From Sulfurovum sp. (lineage in GTDB: Bacteria > Campylobacterota > Campylobacteria > Campylobacterales > Sulfurovaceae): 64,000 nucleotides of DNA. The notes under the pieces are model-generated. The model ran no database searches and had not been told where the DNA came from. It saw only the letters and a list, made by a program, of their open reading frames with translations. This document shows positions 13,520 to 22,791 of the stretch, piece after piece. The DNA lies in the NCBI GenBank assembly GCA_027019175.1, contig JALUXB010000009.1, positions 34,311-98,310 on the forward strand. The letters run 5' to 3'. Every line of letters begins with the position of its first letter. Position 1 is the stretch's first letter. A program made the position numbers and the translations under genes.

Positions 13520-14758
13520 ATGTGGGACTCCTTTATGTTAAATTTGTTATACAAAGAACGTTACTCATTTCAGACCATTGGTATTGAACGAATGAAAGCG
13601 CACTATCTTTTTACCGAAAAAGATGCCAGAATACTGTACAGTCTGCAACCTATTGCACACAAAGCACTGCCTTCTATGATAGATGCATTCTACAATTTCA
13701 TTTTCAATTTTGAACATGCCAAAGTCTTTCTAAATTCGGAAGAAATTATCAGAAAGCATCGCAAAGGTATTGAACAGTGGTACATGAACCTCTTTTGCGG
13801 ACACTATGATACCGACTATTTCGAAGGACTTTCCACCATCAGTGAAACCCATGTAAAAATCGGTCTGCCTTCCCATTATGTCAATGCAGCATTCAGCTTT
13901 GTCCGCCAGTTTCTTGAAAATATGCTGATCAGGGCGGGTCATACCGACAAACTCTCCTCTTTGCACAAGATCATCGATATCAATCTTGATCTCCTGAGCC
14001 TGACTTACAAACAGGAGTCACTACAGAAACTGATTAAAAACGTAGCAGTTTTAAAGGATACCATAAAATATGGAAATATTGTTCCTTATGTCCAGCCAAT
14101 TTACAGCAATAAAACGGGAAAGATTTCACACTATGAGTGTCTCATGAGAATCCCACACAGAGAAAATTACACGGTTTGTTCCATCGTACATATGTTACAA
14201 CTCGCTAAACAGATACATCTCTACCATGACTTGATGCAACAGATGATCCAAAAGAGCTTTAATGCTTTTACACAGTTACCGCATGCATTCACTCTTAATC
14301 TCAGTTATGAAGATATTGCCAACACCGATTCGAGAAATTTTCTTGAGAAGATGCTTATGGCGCTCCCCAATCCCTCCCGTGTAACATTTGAAATTCTTGA
14401 AACCGACATGATTGCCGACTACAATATCGTTTCGGATTTTATCAAAGAGATTAAAACATATGGATCCCAAATTGCCATTGATGATTTTGGTACAGGCTAC
14501 TCCAATATGGAAAATCTTTTAAAACTGAAACCTGATTATGTCAAAATAGACGGTTCGCTTATTCGGGATATTCACCACTCGGAAAAATCACTGAAACTGG
14601 TAAAGAACATTATCAATATCAGCCGGGATATCGGTGCCAAAACAATTGCCGAACATGTTCACAATGAAGCAGTCTACACCATTCTCCATACACTCGACAT
14701 TGACTACCTGCAAGGCTTCTATCTTTGCAAGCCGTTTCCTCTCTCAGAGCTTACATAG
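13520..14758 (+). CDS. Globin-coupled sensor fused to EAL phosphodiesterase
   Basis: N-terminal protoglobin-like (FYNFIF...ISETHVKIGLPSHYVNAA); C-terminal QPIY, ECLMRI, FEILE, IAIDDFGTGYSN, VKIDGS, IAEHV, QGF. Confidence 0.85.
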   Translation: MWDSFMLNLLYKERYSFQTIGIERMKAHYLFTEKDARILYSLQPIAHKALPSMIDAFYNFIFNFEHAKVFLNSEEIIRKHRKGIEQWYMNLFCGHYDTDYFEGLSTISETHVKIGLPSHYVNAAFSFVRQFLENMLIRAGHTDKLSSLHKIIDINLDLLSLTYKQESLQKLIKNVAVLKDTIKYGNIVPYVQPIYSNKTGKISHYECLMRIPHRENYTVCSIVHMLQLAKQIHLYHDLMQQMIQKSFNAFTQLPHAFTLNLSYEDIANTDSRNFLEKMLMALPNPSRVTFEILETDMIADYNIVSDFIKEIKTYGSQIAIDDFGTGYSNMENLLKLKPDYVKIDGSLIRDIHHSEKSLKLVKNIINISRDIGAKTIAEHVHNEAVYTILHTLDIDYLQGFYLCKPFPLSELT

Positions 14759-14768
14759 AAAACATTTT

Positions 14769-16400
14769 CTAAAAAAAGAGCAACTGAATGATGTTCAGAA
14801 TGAACATTGTAATAAATCCTACTTTATAGACCATCATTTCATTACGCTCAATAAATGATGTGTGGCGGTCAAAATAGGGCTGTACTTTGTCAGGATTGTC
14901 AATTTCATAGAGCATTTCCGAATAGTTGTGGTAGCGCTTGTCCGGATCGGTCTCGATGGCACGCAGAATCACACTCTCCAGCCAGTGCGGTATTTTCGGG
15001 TTGAGCTTACTCGGATGCTTCGCATCTTTCTCGAAACCCGGAGTCTGGAACGGTTCTATTTCTCCAAACGGGAACTTCTGTGTCAATGCCTCGTAGAGTG
15101 TCACCCCTATGGCATAAATCTCTGTCTGTTCGGTAATCGGTGCCTGCTTGAAACGCTCCGGCGCAAGATAGGAAGGTGTACCCGCCCGCGTGACTGTAGA
15201 GTAGGCTTCGGTAATACTGCCAAAATCAACCATTTTGAAAACAATCTTCTCTTTTCGTTTGGTCACAATAATATTTTCAGGTTTGATATCGCCGTGTACC
15301 AGGTTGAACTTAATGAGGTACTGCGACATCTTCAGTAAAAAGTGCGCCAGTTCCACCCCAAGGTCAACACTCAGCGGCTTTTTGGAAATATATTCTTTAA
15401 GAGAAACTCCCTCGATGTATCGCATAATATAATAACGGTGTGTCCTCTTTTTCGGAATAACCGCTTTGGGGAAGAATCCGGCTTTCAAGCGGTTGGCCAT
15501 CCAGACTTCTTTCACAAAAAGATCCAGCATCACCTCATCGTCAATCGCTTCATGGGGTGCAAATTTAATCACATACTGCACCCCTTTCTTCTCACACAGC
15601 CAGGTTCTGTTGTTCTGTATCAACGGTTTGATAAGACGATAACCGTCTATCTCTTCACCTTTTTTGTACTGTTCCTGAATAATCAGGTCTGTCTGCTTCA
15701 GCTTCAGCCTCGGGTCAAGCTCTTTGATTTCAATGACCACGGCAGTGGTATCGTCAGGCAGGTCATCGTTGTGCTTTTTGCTTGCTTTTTTAACCAGAAA
15801 CGAAGCACCCACTTTGATGCCCTCTGCAAGTTCTTCGGGGGAGAGTTCATTGTAAAGCCCATCACTACAGAGCAGAATGCGGTCTCCTGCCTGCAAATTG
15901 TTCTCAAAGTAGTAAGGCTCTACACTCTCTTCAAGCCCGATGGCTGCTGTCAGCACATTCTCCATCCCTTCCTCATCCATCGCATGATCGGAGGAGAGCT
16001 GAGCAAACTGTCCGTTACGGGAGAGGTAGATACGGCTGTCACCCACATTGGCACCGTAAAGCCTGTTTCCTTCAATGACCACCAGTGTAAGGGTTGTCAC
16101 AAGCTCCTGCCGTTCATACTGCTCCATCGATTCAAGATAGAGCACACGGTTGATATTGTCAATAAAATGGCGAATGGACTTTTCCATACTCCAGCTTCGC
16201 GGACGGTTCTTCAGCGACTGCACCAGAAACTGCGCGGTACGCTTTGCCGCTTCGGCACCATGCATTGATGAGCCTACTCCATCGCAGACCACCGCAACAG
16301 TAATGTTCTCCATTACTTTGACTTCGAAATAATCATCGCCTTTAAGCTGCGTACCTTTGGCCAGCGTAAATCCGCTGGTTTCAATATTTTCTTTAGACAT
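14769..16400 (-). CDS. Bifunctional PP2C phosphatase / Hanks Ser-Thr kinase with C-terminal TM
   Basis: VCDGVG, NVGDSRIY, LLCSDGL, DDTT (PP2C); IKF, HGDIKPEN, DFG, GTPSYLAPE (kinase); hydrophobic C-terminus. Confidence 0.92.
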   Translation of the reverse strand: MSKENIETSGFTLAKGTQLKGDDYFEVKVMENITVAVVCDGVGSSMHGAEAAKRTAQFLVQSLKNRPRSWSMEKSIRHFIDNINRVLYLESMEQYERQELVTTLTLVVIEGNRLYGANVGDSRIYLSRNGQFAQLSSDHAMDEEGMENVLTAAIGLEESVEPYYFENNLQAGDRILLCSDGLYNELSPEELAEGIKVGASFLVKKASKKHNDDLPDDTTAVVIEIKELDPRLKLKQTDLIIQEQYKKGEEIDGYRLIKPLIQNNRTWLCEKKGVQYVIKFAPHEAIDDEVMLDLFVKEVWMANRLKAGFFPKAVIPKKRTHRYYIMRYIEGVSLKEYISKKPLSVDLGVELAHFLLKMSQYLIKFNLVHGDIKPENIIVTKRKEKIVFKMVDFGSITEAYSTVTRAGTPSYLAPERFKQAPITEQTEIYAIGVTLYEALTQKFPFGEIEPFQTPGFEKDAKHPSKLNPKIPHWLESVILRAIETDPDKRYHNYSEMLYEIDNPDKVQPYFDRHTSFIERNEMMVYKVGFITMFILNIIQLLFF

Positions 16401-16429: not shown

Positions 16430-16484
16430 ATTATAACATTGCCTTCAGCACTTTCAGACGTCCTGCCTGATTAAGATTTGTGCA
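16430..16484 (-). promoter_or_regulatory. Promoter of PP2C-kinase gene with hybrid operator
   Basis: TGT-TATAAT extended -10 on minus strand (16430-16438); TGATTAAGATTTGTGCA at 16468-16484, centre 41 bp upstream of the -10. Confidence 0.65.
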
Positions 16485-16534
16485 GTATATCTATCTGCTA
16501 TAATATGCACAACCCATTCCAAAAGGATATTTTA

Positions 16535-16807
16535 ATGCCCGGCAAAATAATGATCGCAGCACTATGCTGTACTGCCCTTACAATGGGTGCAGAAGACAAC
16601 AACCGTACCAAACAGGCACTTATTCAAAAACAGATTGAAAAACAGAAAGCGTTGGAGAAAAAATATGCTAAAGAACAACGATTCTATCAGGGAGATGAAT
16701 ATGACTTCAAGGGCAAAGAAGTAGACCCCGACATCCTCAAAGATGTCAAGCCTGTGGAACCCGACTATGAGCACACCAACGACTGGGGTGTTGCGGATAA
16801 TGAATGA
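16535..16807 (+). CDS. Small exported hypothetical protein
   Basis: AAAGGA RBS before ATG 16535, signal-like MPGKIMIAALCCTALTMGA, TGC-TATAAT at 16496-16504. Confidence 0.7.
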   Translation: MPGKIMIAALCCTALTMGAEDNNRTKQALIQKQIEKQKALEKKYAKEQRFYQGDEYDFKGKEVDPDILKDVKPVEPDYEHTNDWGVADNE

Positions 16808-16915: not shown

Positions 16916-18196
16916 TTAAATAATTCCCCCTGCATTGGCACCCCATGTGGTTCTCCAGCGTGTTTTAACAAGCGAAATGGCACCGATGGCAATGAGTACA
17001 AGCCCCGCAAAAATAAAGAAACCGACACTGTAGCTGTCAAACGTCCCTTTCGCCCAGCCAAGTGTTTTGACAAGGAACGTACCGCCGATCCCGCCGGCTG
17101 CACCGATGAGTCCGGTCATAATACCGATATCTTTTCCGAAGCGCTGCGGTACGAGCTGGAAAACTGCACCGTTTGCCATTCCAAGATTGGCCATGATCAA
17201 AAAGAGTACACCAATGGCAACCCAGAACGGAAGCTGTACCGCACCGCTGAGCGCCACCAGTGCAGCAACAACACCAAAAAAGATATAAAGTGCTTTGACC
17301 CCACCCATTTTGTCGGCAATACCACCGCCTACAGGACGCAACACTGCACCGGCAAAGATGGTAAGGGCTCCAAAGTAACCGGCAATGACCTTGACATTCG
17401 GTTCATGGAAAACACTCAATCCAAAAGCACTCATATCTGCCTGATACGTATTCATCAGGTAGACTTTCATATAGTTTGCAAATCCTACAAATCCGCCGAA
17501 GCTGACAGCATAAAAGAGCATAAACCACCAGCTGTCACGGTCTTTGAGCAGTTTCCAGTAATCACCCAGCTTTTTGGGACGCGGCTTGTAAACTGATTCA
17601 GGTGCATCTTTTGCCATTAAAATATAAATGATCAGCACGATGAACGAGAGCAATCCTCCAACAAGGAAAACTGCTTCCCATCCCCAAATTTCTGCGATTT
17701 TAGGTGCAAAAAGGAAGTCAACGACCACACCGATATTCCCTGCTCCGGCAATACCGAGTACGATCCCCTGAAGCTTGGGCGGATACCACTGTCCTGCCTG
17801 CGGCAGTGCCACCGCAAAGGATGCACCGGCAAAACCAAGCCCAAGTGCAACAACCAACAATTCATTATAGGTAATGCTCTCTCCTCTTGAATACGCATAG
17901 AAGAGTGATGCAATCACGATAACCTGTGCGATGATGGCAGTTTTCTTCGGTCCAATCTTGTCGACACCGAAACCAAGTACAATACGCAGCAGTGCACCTG
18001 CCAAAATCGGGATGGAAAGCAGTGTTGCAATCTGCCCTGCACTCAATGCTGTACCGTGATGAGCCAGTGATTCGTTGATCTCGGTTGCCAAAGGCCCGAG
18101 CATCGTCCATACCATAAAACTGAAATCAAAGTAGAGAAATGCCGCAAAAAGTGTCTTTGCATCTCCCTGCCCTTTAAGCGCCTTGAAGTTCGCCAT
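16916..18196 (-). CDS. narK: Nitrate/nitrite MFS transporter (NarK/NasA family)
   Basis: FAGASFAVALPQAGQWYP, GIAGAGNIG, LRPVGGGIADKMGG, GMANGAVFQLVPQRF nitrate-signature motifs. Confidence 0.93.
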   Translation of the reverse strand: MANFKALKGQGDAKTLFAAFLYFDFSFMVWTMLGPLATEINESLAHHGTALSAGQIATLLSIPILAGALLRIVLGFGVDKIGPKKTAIIAQVIVIASLFYAYSRGESITYNELLVVALGLGFAGASFAVALPQAGQWYPPKLQGIVLGIAGAGNIGVVVDFLFAPKIAEIWGWEAVFLVGGLLSFIVLIIYILMAKDAPESVYKPRPKKLGDYWKLLKDRDSWWFMLFYAVSFGGFVGFANYMKVYLMNTYQADMSAFGLSVFHEPNVKVIAGYFGALTIFAGAVLRPVGGGIADKMGGVKALYIFFGVVAALVALSGAVQLPFWVAIGVLFLIMANLGMANGAVFQLVPQRFGKDIGIMTGLIGAAGGIGGTFLVKTLGWAKGTFDSYSVGFFIFAGLVLIAIGAISLVKTRWRTTWGANAGGII

Positions 18197-18433: not shown

Positions 18434-20353
18434 ATGGAAGCATTAGCAAAAGCCAAAGAGGCAAGAAGCAAAAAGCTCAATAAAGTAGAAACGACCAAAG
18501 CGCTTAAAGACCCGATGGAGGTCTACAAGCGTTTGGAAGAGATCGCAGCAGCAGGTTATGAGGGATTAAGCAAAGAGGATTCCGCCTACTTTCTAAAGTG
18601 TTTCGGACTCTTCGATAAGGGCGAGGACTTTATGTTACGTGTGCGTATCCCCGGCGGGCAGCTGACCAATGCACAAGCGATACGCATCGGTGAAGTGGCA
18701 AAGGAGTACGGCAATGACTACATCGATATTACCACCCGTATGCAGGTGGAACTGCGCTATTTGCAGATTGCTGACATTGCAAAGGTACTCAAAGCGCTTA
18801 AAGAGGCAGGCATCTCCACCTTCCAGACCGGGGTGGACAACCCGCGAAACATCGTCACCGACCCGCTTGACGGTATCGCTTATGACAACATCATCGAGTC
18901 CATGCCCATCTTGACGCAGCTTCAGGAGATCTTCCTCGAAAATCCCGAGTGGATCTCTGCCCTGCCTCGAAAATTCAATACCGGTATTTTGGGAAGCCTG
19001 AGCAACTCCTGTAACATCTTCGGGCATGACTGTAACTTCGTACTCGCCAACAAAGACGGTAACTTTGGCTTCAACGTCTACCTTGGTGCCCGTGTCGGTG
19101 TACAGGCACGGGATGCTGACCTCTTCGTTACTCCCGAAGAGGTACCCGTATTTTTCAAAGCCCTGCTAAACGTTTTCAAAACCTACGGCTACCGCGACAA
19201 CCGCAACAAGAACCGTCTGCACTTTCTGCTGCAGGATGTGGGTATTCCTGCATTCATCGAAGCGGTCAAAGAGGAGGCCGGACTCTCCTTTGCCTCAGGC
19301 GGCATGACACTGGTGCAGTCGCAAAACATCGCGCTGGGTGCCAACCGTGTGCTGCTTAAAAACGGCACCTATGCCTACAAGGTCATCGTCCCCTCCGGTA
19401 TCTTCAGCGGAACGGATATGATCGCAGCAGCCAAAGCGGCACAAAGCTACGGCAGCGGCGACATCCGTCTCAGCTACGACCAGAACCTTTTCATTATCAA
19501 CATTGACAAAGAGAAGCTTGATGCCTTTGAGAACGATCCGCTCATTGGCAAATATGCCCAGTACAACAACCTCTATTTTCAGGATATGATTGCCTGTGCG
19601 GGAACACAGACCTGCAGCTATGGCGTCATCCCCAACAAACCCGATGCCATCGAGATGGCACACTTCCTCAACTCCGAAGTGCCCATTGCCAATGCCAACG
19701 TACGTATGAACTGGTCAGCCTGCCCCAAAGGGTGCGGCGTACACGGCATTGCCGACATCGGTTTTGAGGGATGCAAGGCAAAAGATGCCGAGGGCAACCG
19801 TGTAGATGGTGTACACCTCTTTATGGGCGGCAAGATCACCCGCCAAGCCAAAGAGGCGCACATCCTGCACAAAGCACTGCCGATCGACGAAGCCAAACAC
19901 CATGTCAAGTATCTTCTGAAAACATATGCGGTATACAAAGAGCGCGGAGAGACCTTCGAGAGTTTTGAGACACGCTTTTTCAGCAAGAACTACAGCTACC
20001 AGGCGATCAGCTTCTTTACCAAGATCAACTACATCCTCCGCGACAAACTGGGACTGGATGTAATGTTTGAGCTTGACAAAGAGCCCAAAAGTGGACGCCG
20101 TGAAGAGTACGAACTCTTTACCTTCGGACTCAAACTCTTCAAACTCCTCACGGGAGAGAAGCGTTTTGAAGCTGTCACAGGACTTGCTCCCACACTCGCA
20201 CGCCCAAGAAAGATCAAACGGGATGAAGTAAGCAAGCTCAACCCGAAAGTCCCGCCGAAACTCTCTGAAGTCATCTACAATATGACCCATGAGAACAAGA
20301 GTGAGCGTGCGCAGGTCTTCTCGGAGTTGCTTATGGCACTTAAAGAGGTGTAA
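18434..20353 (+). CDS. nirA: Ferredoxin-nitrite reductase with C-terminal extension
   Basis: MLRVRIPGG, ITTRMQVELR, ALPRKFN, siroheme/FeS ligands ACAGTQTC and SACPKGCG; nitrate-cluster context. Confidence 0.9.
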   Translation: MEALAKAKEARSKKLNKVETTKALKDPMEVYKRLEEIAAAGYEGLSKEDSAYFLKCFGLFDKGEDFMLRVRIPGGQLTNAQAIRIGEVAKEYGNDYIDITTRMQVELRYLQIADIAKVLKALKEAGISTFQTGVDNPRNIVTDPLDGIAYDNIIESMPILTQLQEIFLENPEWISALPRKFNTGILGSLSNSCNIFGHDCNFVLANKDGNFGFNVYLGARVGVQARDADLFVTPEEVPVFFKALLNVFKTYGYRDNRNKNRLHFLLQDVGIPAFIEAVKEEAGLSFASGGMTLVQSQNIALGANRVLLKNGTYAYKVIVPSGIFSGTDMIAAAKAAQSYGSGDIRLSYDQNLFIINIDKEKLDAFENDPLIGKYAQYNNLYFQDMIACAGTQTCSYGVIPNKPDAIEMAHFLNSEVPIANANVRMNWSACPKGCGVHGIADIGFEGCKAKDAEGNRVDGVHLFMGGKITRQAKEAHILHKALPIDEAKHHVKYLLKTYAVYKERGETFESFETRFFSKNYSYQAISFFTKINYILRDKLGLDVMFELDKEPKSGRREEYELFTFGLKLFKLLTGEKRFEAVTGLAPTLARPRKIKRDEVSKLNPKVPPKLSEVIYNMTHENKSERAQVFSELLMALKEV

Positions 20354-22279: not shown

Positions 22280-22534
22280 ATGCAGGTTGTCAACTTTACA
22301 GAAGCAAGAAACAATTTAAAAGCACTCTGTGATACCGTCTATGAGAACAGTGAAGAGGTCATCATCAATCGCAAAAACGGAGAAAATGTAGTCATTCTTT
22401 CATTGGAGAGCTATAATGCACTACAGGAGACTGCTTACCTGCTGGCGTCTGCCAAAAACAGAGAACGTCTGCTTAGTTCACTTGAGCATGCCCGTACAGG
22501 CAAAGTAACACAAAGAGAATTAGCAGAGTCATGA
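22280..22534 (+). CDS. yefM: YefM/Phd family antitoxin
   Basis: NFTEARNNLK, VIINRKNG, YNALQETAYLLASAKNRERL. Confidence 0.93.
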   Translation: MQVVNFTEARNNLKALCDTVYENSEEVIINRKNGENVVILSLESYNALQETAYLLASAKNRERLLSSLEHARTGKVTQRELAES

Positions 22535-22791
22535 ATCTTCTTTTCACAGAGGAAGCATGGGAAGACTACTGCTATTGGCAGCAGTACGATAAAAAGTTAC
22601 TCAAAAAGGTAAACAGCCTTTTAAAAGAGATACAAAGAAACCCGTTTGAGGGTACCGGAAAACCTGAAGCACTAAAACATGAACTTCAGGGATGTTGGTC
22701 ACGGCGCATTAATCAGGAACACCGCCTGGTCTATGAGGTCTTGGACACACAGATAAATATCTTGGCTTGCCGGTATCATTACGGTAATTAG
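22531..22791 (+). CDS. yoeB: YoeB/Txe family toxin
   Basis: AWEDYCYWQ, GTGKPEALKHELQGCWSRRINQEHRLVY, CRYHY; ATGA overlap with antitoxin. Confidence 0.95.
   Translation: MNLLFTEEAWEDYCYWQQYDKKLLKKVNSLLKEIQRNPFEGTGKPEALKHELQGCWSRRINQEHRLVYEVLDTQINILACRYHYGN

Follow-up and report, generated by a model that had tools for sequence, protein, structure and literature searches.

Phosphorylation of NRT1.1 by CIPK23 in Arabidopsis and of Ynt1 by Npr1 in yeast tunes nitrate uptake, and in these eukaryotes the kinase and the phosphatase of the nitrate transporter are separate soluble proteins. The closest described bacterial proteins form the PA1782/PpkB family, for which the eukaryotic systems offer a working analogy only. 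Pseudomonas aeruginosa PA1782 is encoded between nasA (PA1783) and nirB (PA1781) (PMC7214821) and has the status of a predicted kinase (PMC8560001, PMC11197903). For Pseudomonas sp. UW4, the genome description of 2013 placed ppkB (PputUW4_03641) downstream of nasA and suggested that the transporter is phosphorylated, citing as parallels studies of a CBL-interacting kinase in Arabidopsis and of Npr1/Ynt1 in yeast (PMC3596284), and Methylococcus genomes have been described with the same cluster (PMC8527097). Here we analyze a gene (P0001) that joins a PP2C phosphatase, a Hanks-type Ser/Thr kinase, and a C-terminal membrane anchor in one chain. It lies in a 64,000-nucleotide stretch of a Sulfurovum sp. 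genome (GCA_027019175.1, contig JALUXB010000009.1, positions 34,311 to 98,310), hereafter the window. Judged from its sequence, the fusion belongs to the PA1782/PpkB family, annotated and noted in print in 2013, of which it forms the Campylobacterota branch, and it is probably an on/off switch of nitrogen uptake.

The features that define the family are all present. P0001 carries PP2C, kinase, and a single C-terminal transmembrane (TM) anchor on one chain with no outside domain, it matches family representatives over its full length at 25-47% identity (30% for the Pseudomonas protein L041 over residues 37-542, E 2e-68), and a nitrogen-anion transporter gene, of the NarK or the formate/nitrite transporter (FNT) type in this family, is its neighbor: narK lies 516 bp upstream on the same strand. 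PA1782 itself was placed in the family by locus numbering and the literature, not by its sequence. The closest database matches of the fusion are Sulfurovum proteins (80-99% identity), several of the top ones being named "bifunctional protein-serine/threonine kinase/phosphatase" (NCBI). With PA1782/ppkB the fusion shares the PP2C-kinase-TM architecture, the place directly behind a NarK-family transporter of a nas cluster, and the missing glycine-rich loop. The Campylobacterota clade differs in forming a long separate branch (length 1.96), in a turn at the glycine-loop position (PLIQNNRTW) that is two residues shorter than in the rest of the family, and in reading HGD throughout at the catalytic loop. 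Its partner is a ferredoxin-type NirA bearing a kinase-like tail, whereas PA1782/ppkB is partnered with NirBD, and in this window an inserted gene appears to uncouple the fusion from narK.

Across genomes, the fusion is coupled to NarK. Orthologues (E < 1e-150) are present in 23 of 201 sampled Campylobacterota genomes, and NarK is found in exactly those same 23. A genus sample of 41 genomes contains the fusion in 32, NarK in 30, and neither in 9; the two discordant genomes are explained by contig breaks. Of 19 orthologous loci, 18 have NarK upstream and in the same orientation, and the two genes often abut or are 0-20 bp apart. In one complete Sulfurovum genome (G234:C1:1540983-1545969), narK and the fusion gene share a strand and are ~2 kb apart. 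Among ten named proteobacterial loci, taken from a scan with a general kinase motif in which only the first 10-11 of 80 loci are family members, NarK adjoins the fusion in eight, and the two genes are convergent or divergent in three. The eight include Pseudomonas, Methylomonas, Colwellia, Porticoccus, Sedimenticola, and metagenome-assembled genomes (MAGs) of a comamonadacean and a betaproteobacterium. Convergent or divergent neighbors occur at L042, L044, L045, and in G393, and adjacency thus persists through changes of gene orientation. A full-length fusion is encoded in 84 of 300 sampled Gammaproteobacteria (28%). When fusion coordinates were compared by eye with TIGR00886 matches, no fewer than 66 of these genomes proved to encode a NarK-family protein within 2 kb of the fusion, in 65 cases upstream and in the same orientation; the totals of 84 and 66 include the unpublished G283 and G385 and are 82 and 64 without them. 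One further NarK-linked case, G382, is cut by a contig end. The first-pass annotation, made from the letters of the window, had stated that fusions of this kind, their substrate undefined, adjoin nitrate transporters in other Proteobacteria, and these counts, together with the published descriptions (PMC3596284, PMC11197903, PMC8527097), bear this out.

The other gammaproteobacterial copies are paralogues and lack an adjacent NarK. For these we predicted an FNT (PF01226) neighbor and then found it: the paralogues lie directly behind an FNT gene in 9 of 10 loci (L034, L035, L132-L139), the tenth being cut by a contig end, and the cyanate lyase gene cynS is present before, between, or after the two in 6 of the 10. 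In a quick, unrooted maximum-likelihood tree, the ten paralogues form one branch (100 by the Shimodaira-Hasegawa-like approximate likelihood ratio test, SH-aLRT), and the Campylobacterota members G166 and G159 nest among the gammaproteobacterial FNT-type paralogues. FNT proteins encoded beside these paralogues have the C-terminal sequence THV[KR]T..R, and those of the two Campylobacterota members retain 76-81% identity across phyla, an indication of gene transfer. The constant neighbor of the fusion is thus a nitrogen-compound transporter of either of two unrelated folds, which favors the transporter over a reductase as partner; from gene neighborhoods, we consider the transporter the likeliest partner of the fusion. 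Two alphaproteobacterial loci were noted in addition. In a MAG (L047:5578-6954), an Amt ammonium transporter gene diverges upstream of the fusion in place of NarK or FNT, a single case that may represent a third partner type, and another locus has nirB as neighbor.

It could be argued that proximity to narK is operon hitch-hiking and that the fusion serves general Ser/Thr signaling unrelated to nitrate, or replaces a lost NtrBC relay. No second Hanks kinase or PP2C was found in the genome when it was queried with the fusion protein, which would suit such a general role, as would the promoter-like site that precedes the gene in this strain and the absence of a full nitrogen operator there. The exact co-occurrence with NarK, adjacency that is kept across phyla and orientations, and the switch of the paralogue to another nitrogen-anion channel speak against it, and we regard this explanation as most improbable. 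Replacement of a lost His-Asp relay, which had been suggested in the first-pass annotation, is unlikely because Pseudomonas keeps both NasST and NtrBC beside nasA-ppkB (PMC3596284, PMC10783516).

We compared the domains of P0001 with sequence profiles, with predicted and solved structures, and with a family alignment of 40 full-length relatives (23-60% identity), drawn from a search of 1.84 billion representatives. Residues 18-190 match PP2C_2 (71.9 bits, cut-off 24), the PP2C profile PF00481 is likewise above threshold (53 bits, cut-off 20.3), and residues 271-490 match Pkinase (PF00069, 92.2 bits, cut-off 31.7). An AlphaFold2 model calculated on the family alignment has a mean predicted local distance difference test score (pLDDT) of 93.6 and a predicted TM-score (pTM) of 0.89, its weakest parts being the interdomain linker and the activation loop. 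A Foldseek search with the N-terminal domain returned PstP, tPphA, Stp1, and PppA (E 1e-15 to 1e-17), and the kinase domain matched PknB and Stk1, with Mycobacterium tuberculosis PknI also among the matches; no solved structure containing both phosphatase and kinase domains was among them. PknB/Stk1 and PstP/Stp1, the best structural matches of the two domains, resemble the fusion also in that an opposing kinase and phosphatase are encoded together, but they are two separate proteins, of which the kinase has extracellular PASTA sensor domains and a canonical glycine-rich loop. P0001 scores well under the cut-offs for Stk1/PknB (NF033483, 130.1 versus 450 bits) and Stp1 (NF033484, 121.5 versus 230 bits). 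Identity as a defense-system kinase (MADS6, BREX PglW) was rejected, the scores being far under cut-off.

The final 22 residues of P0001 are hydrophobic and nothing follows the TM helix. The most hydrophobic 17-residue segment lies 0-11 residues from the C terminus in 39 of the 40 family members, and only one member has another segment above the TM threshold (mean hydropathy >1.8). The C-terminal TM helix read from the sequence at first pass is thus supported by hydropathy, by the modeled helix 521-542, and by its presence in 39 of 40 relatives. The fusion is predicted to be a tail-anchored protein of the inner membrane with both enzymes on the cytoplasmic side and no outside sensor domain.

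Both domains are predicted to fold confidently, and their catalytic residues are kept in homologues down to 23% identity. In the phosphatase, D40-G41, G120-D121, and D180-G181 are invariant, and D23 and D216 nearly so, which accounts for the metal-binding Asp of PPM motifs I, II, V, VIII, and XI. Kinase residues K279, E298, H369, D371, N376, D392, G394, E415, and R489 are invariant, K373 is kept in at least 90% of the homologues, and the fusion itself reads H369-G-D371-I-K-P-E-N376, D392-F-G394, A413-P-E415, and R489. The intact PP2C metal motifs and the intact HGDIKPEN, DFG, and APE motifs noted at first pass are therefore all present and conserved, as are K279 and E298. Residues 259-267 (PLIQNNRTW) occupy the place where GxGxxG is expected, as that reading had also noted; by Pfam score and catalytic residues the domain is a Hanks kinase, and by this loop it is not canonical. 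None of the 40 family members has GxGxx[GAS] in the β1-β2 region, so loss of the loop is a family trait and not a local lesion. Distant members have LHASxRSxVY at this position, and the Sulfurovum turn is modeled confidently (pLDDT blocks of 96 and 92). The HRD arginine is also replaced, by glycine in the Campylobacterota clade; elsewhere in the family HRD, HQD, or HCD is found.

The missing loop raises the possibility of a pseudokinase that phosphorylates nothing and docks the active PP2C, or itself, onto the transporter. That GxGxxG is missing from every family member fits such a scaffold, and so does the match to PknI, for which an inactive, pseudokinase-like state is reported. We consider it very unlikely, however: pseudokinases usually lose at least one of the residues K279, E298, D371, N376, D392, and E415, which are invariant here down to 23% identity, and the genome search revealed no further Hanks kinase to write the mark for the PP2C to erase.

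In Campylobacterota, the nitrite reductase NirA appears tied to the fusion-NarK module by a copied piece of the kinase C-lobe. The NirA protein encoded in the window (639 residues) has a C-terminal tail whose residues 557-633 align with residues 424-497 of P0001 (BLASTP, E 2e-5), and the tail also gives an NCBIfam PknB match. All 19 Campylobacterota fusions score 49-57 bits with a profile built from 14 NirA tails, against 15-27 bits for the proteobacterial fusions, and the tail thus derives from the kinase of that clade. Of the 23 genomes with the fusion, 21 also encode a tailed NirA. G065 combines the fusion with an untailed NirA, and in G166 the tailed NirA occurs with the FNT-type paralogue alone. 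These data bear on a different function for the fusion, in which it would act with the transporter as a transceptor: it would read the conformation or occupancy of NarK (or FNT) and phosphorylate other proteins, possibly NirA through its kinase-like tail or the NtrC-like regulator pair of the cluster, thereby reporting flux instead of gating it. Such a circuit would suit a protein that lacks its own sensor domain, beside which no further Hanks kinase or PP2C was found in the genome, and from whose clade of kinases the NirA tail derives. Outside Campylobacterota, however, NirA is not tailed and the link to the transporter is still present, the two genomes G065 and G166 break the pairing, and no FHA reader domain was found in the genome; we consider this function rather unlikely. 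Of the targets proposed at first pass (NarK, NirA, or the reductase), NarK is strongly backed by co-occurrence and adjacency and NirA is backed in Campylobacterota by its kinase-C-lobe-like tail, whereas no evidence was found for the nitrate reductase.

A candidate phospho-acceptor site is found in the cytoplasmic tail of NarK. The segment VKTRWRTTWG (residues 410-419) is invariant in 18 of 18 fusion-linked NarKs of Campylobacterota, which are of the 12-TM type, and is also present in Pseudomonas and Methylomonas; betaproteobacterial fusion-linked NarKs read RWTRTW at the tail. RWRTTWG is absent from the respiratory NarK1/NarK2 of genomes without the fusion, a comparison for which 20 loci were fetched and 6 left out as the longest open reading frame (ORF) picked was a spurious high-GC frame. 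The invariant Thr416-Thr417 pair in RWRTTWG is the best candidate site, a lead and not a finding.

The domain architecture, the tether in the membrane, the intact catalytic residues, and the linkage of the gene to transporter genes lead us to infer catalytic activity, a substrate, a site, and a direction of the effect on uptake, and we somewhat favor the following mechanism over its alternatives taken together. The last 22 residues would hold the cytoplasm-facing enzyme in the inner membrane, where the kinase would transfer phosphate to a segment of NarK that faces the cytoplasm, the best candidate being Thr416-Thr417 after the last TM helix. The fused PP2C phosphatase would remove the phosphate again, and nitrate uptake could be switched within seconds, independently of transcription. 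A more elaborate proposal, which we hold to be quite unlikely, would have the kinase C-lobe dock the transporter tail and NirA, having acquired a copy of it, compete or alternate with the kinase at NarK; phosphorylation of the Thr-Thr pair would then decide whether a NarK-NirA channeling complex forms, and the family would serve across bacteria as a general, transporter-coupled gauge of nitrate, nitrite, and cyanate flux.

Several observations weigh against a kinase/phosphatase switch acting on NarK. The glycine-rich loop is absent family-wide, and ATP binding and kinase activity are therefore not assured. A NasA-type NarK (L157) in the gammaproteobacterial genome G491 (C1:2954104-2955108) ends in RWRTTWG, and no fusion gene was found in that genome at E 1e-5; the motif may thus be structural, and the idea that it is strictly fusion-dependent is weakened. 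A second subtype of fusion-linked NarK (L043, L046, L048, L050) has a different tail. In this window, narK and the fusion gene look transcriptionally uncoupled, at the level of consensus matches, given an antisense ORF, a hairpin, a promoter-like site, and the absence of an operator. As the sampled genomes are related, they are not independent cases, and the support is overstated by the co-occurrence counts, which describe a pattern, not a probability. Finally, a literature search for a functional study of any family member found none.

The cyanobacterial PII protein, which is phosphorylated at Ser49 and has PphA/tPphA as its PP2C phosphatase, offers another point of comparison: it controls nitrate and cyanate uptake in cyanobacteria, and the best structural matches of the fusion's PP2C domain include tPphA. 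In the Sulfurovum genome, the single PII carries Ala49 and Tyr51, and there is a GlnD-like gene; a Ser49 switch of the cyanobacterial type is therefore not available, and we set PII aside as a substrate of that style.

The features of the fusion gene and its surroundings are listed in Table 1. On the minus strand, narK is followed by a 516-bp gap and the fusion gene, and the narK product scores 243 bits with TIGR00886, under the model cut-off of 311.7. The first-pass annotation had correctly placed the fusion downstream of narK on the same strand, though a small plus-strand ORF intervenes within the gap. This ORF, with its ATG at 16535, occurs only in the two closest genomes (~70% identity), in which the fusion is 97-98% identical, and no Pfam family was found for it. 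Other Sulfurovum genomes have a plain gap of 130-220 bp between narK and the fusion gene. We rejected the ORF (16478-16807) as a conserved operon member, as it is lineage-specific.

Table 1. Features of the fusion gene and of the narK-nirA locus (window coordinates).
Feature	Position	Strand	Basis and remarks
PP2C phosphatase / Hanks kinase / tail-anchor fusion gene (P0001)	14769..16400	minus	ORF and translation, 543 residues
PP2C (PPM) phosphatase domain, residues ~18-225	15726..16349	minus	Pfam PF13672, PF00481, PF07228
Predicted Ser/Thr protein kinase domain, residues ~250-505, non-RD type (HGD)	14886..15653	minus	Pfam PF00069
β1-β2 turn PLIQNNRTW in place of glycine-rich loop	15600..15626	minus	Sequence, residues 259-267
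C-terminal transmembrane tail anchor, residues 522-543	14772..14837	minus	Hydropathy and AlphaFold2 helix 521-542
Promoter-like site, extended -10, CTGAAA-16-TG-n-TATAAT	16430..16457	minus	Consensus scan and sequence reading; before fusion gene
Small ORF, ~90 residues, signal-peptide-like start	16535..16807	plus	Sequence; antisense, between narK and fusion gene
narK, NarK-family nitrate/nitrite MFS transporter	16916..18196	minus	Pfam MFS_1; TIGR00886
NarK residues 410-419, VKTRWRTTWG, candidate phospho-acceptor T416, T417	16940..16969	minus	Directly after last TM helix
NirA C-terminal tail, residues 557-633	20102..20332	plus	Homologous to helices αF-αI of fusion kinase C-lobe

An inverted repeat that could form a hairpin follows the narK stop codon. 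The promoter of its own that the first reading had given to the fusion gene is represented by a consensus match, and the number of such promoter-like sites in the region is not above chance. Perfect TGATT-N7-AATCA operators are found between narK and nirA and before amtB, and no such sequence with up to one mismatch was found upstream of the fusion gene. Two weaker operator candidates were discarded: a "hybrid" at 16468-16484 has three mismatches in one half, and a one-mismatch match at 16319-16335 on the plus strand lies inside the fusion coding sequence and is within chance (7 found, 5.0 expected).

On the other side, a plus-strand globin-EAL gene (13520-14758), encoding a globin-coupled cyclic di-GMP phosphodiesterase, runs toward the fusion gene, the two stop codons lying 10 bp apart. 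The globin-EAL gene was inserted in this lineage, yceG being the downstream neighbor in most other Sulfurovum loci examined. Beyond nirA (18434-20353), which diverges from narK, come an FeS/DmsC-type fusion gene, a yefM-yoeB toxin-antitoxin pair (22280-22791, plus strand), and the gene for a molybdenum nitrate reductase.

Outside the cyanobacteria, little is understood of how heterotrophic and chemolithotrophic bacteria stop nitrate uptake quickly, for instance upon a pulse of ammonium. Our comparisons define the Sulfurovum fusion as a divergent member of an already annotated family whose genes are coupled to those of nitrate, nitrite, or cyanate transporters. Present in 28% of sampled Gammaproteobacteria and in every sampled NarK-bearing Campylobacterota genome, this family is an obvious candidate for rapid control of nitrate uptake. 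Two paralogous clades behind two unrelated nitrogen-anion transporters, the membrane tether, and the invariant Thr-Thr tail of NarK make the question directly testable, and the family would also reveal if a glycine-rich loop of some form is indispensable to a Hanks kinase.

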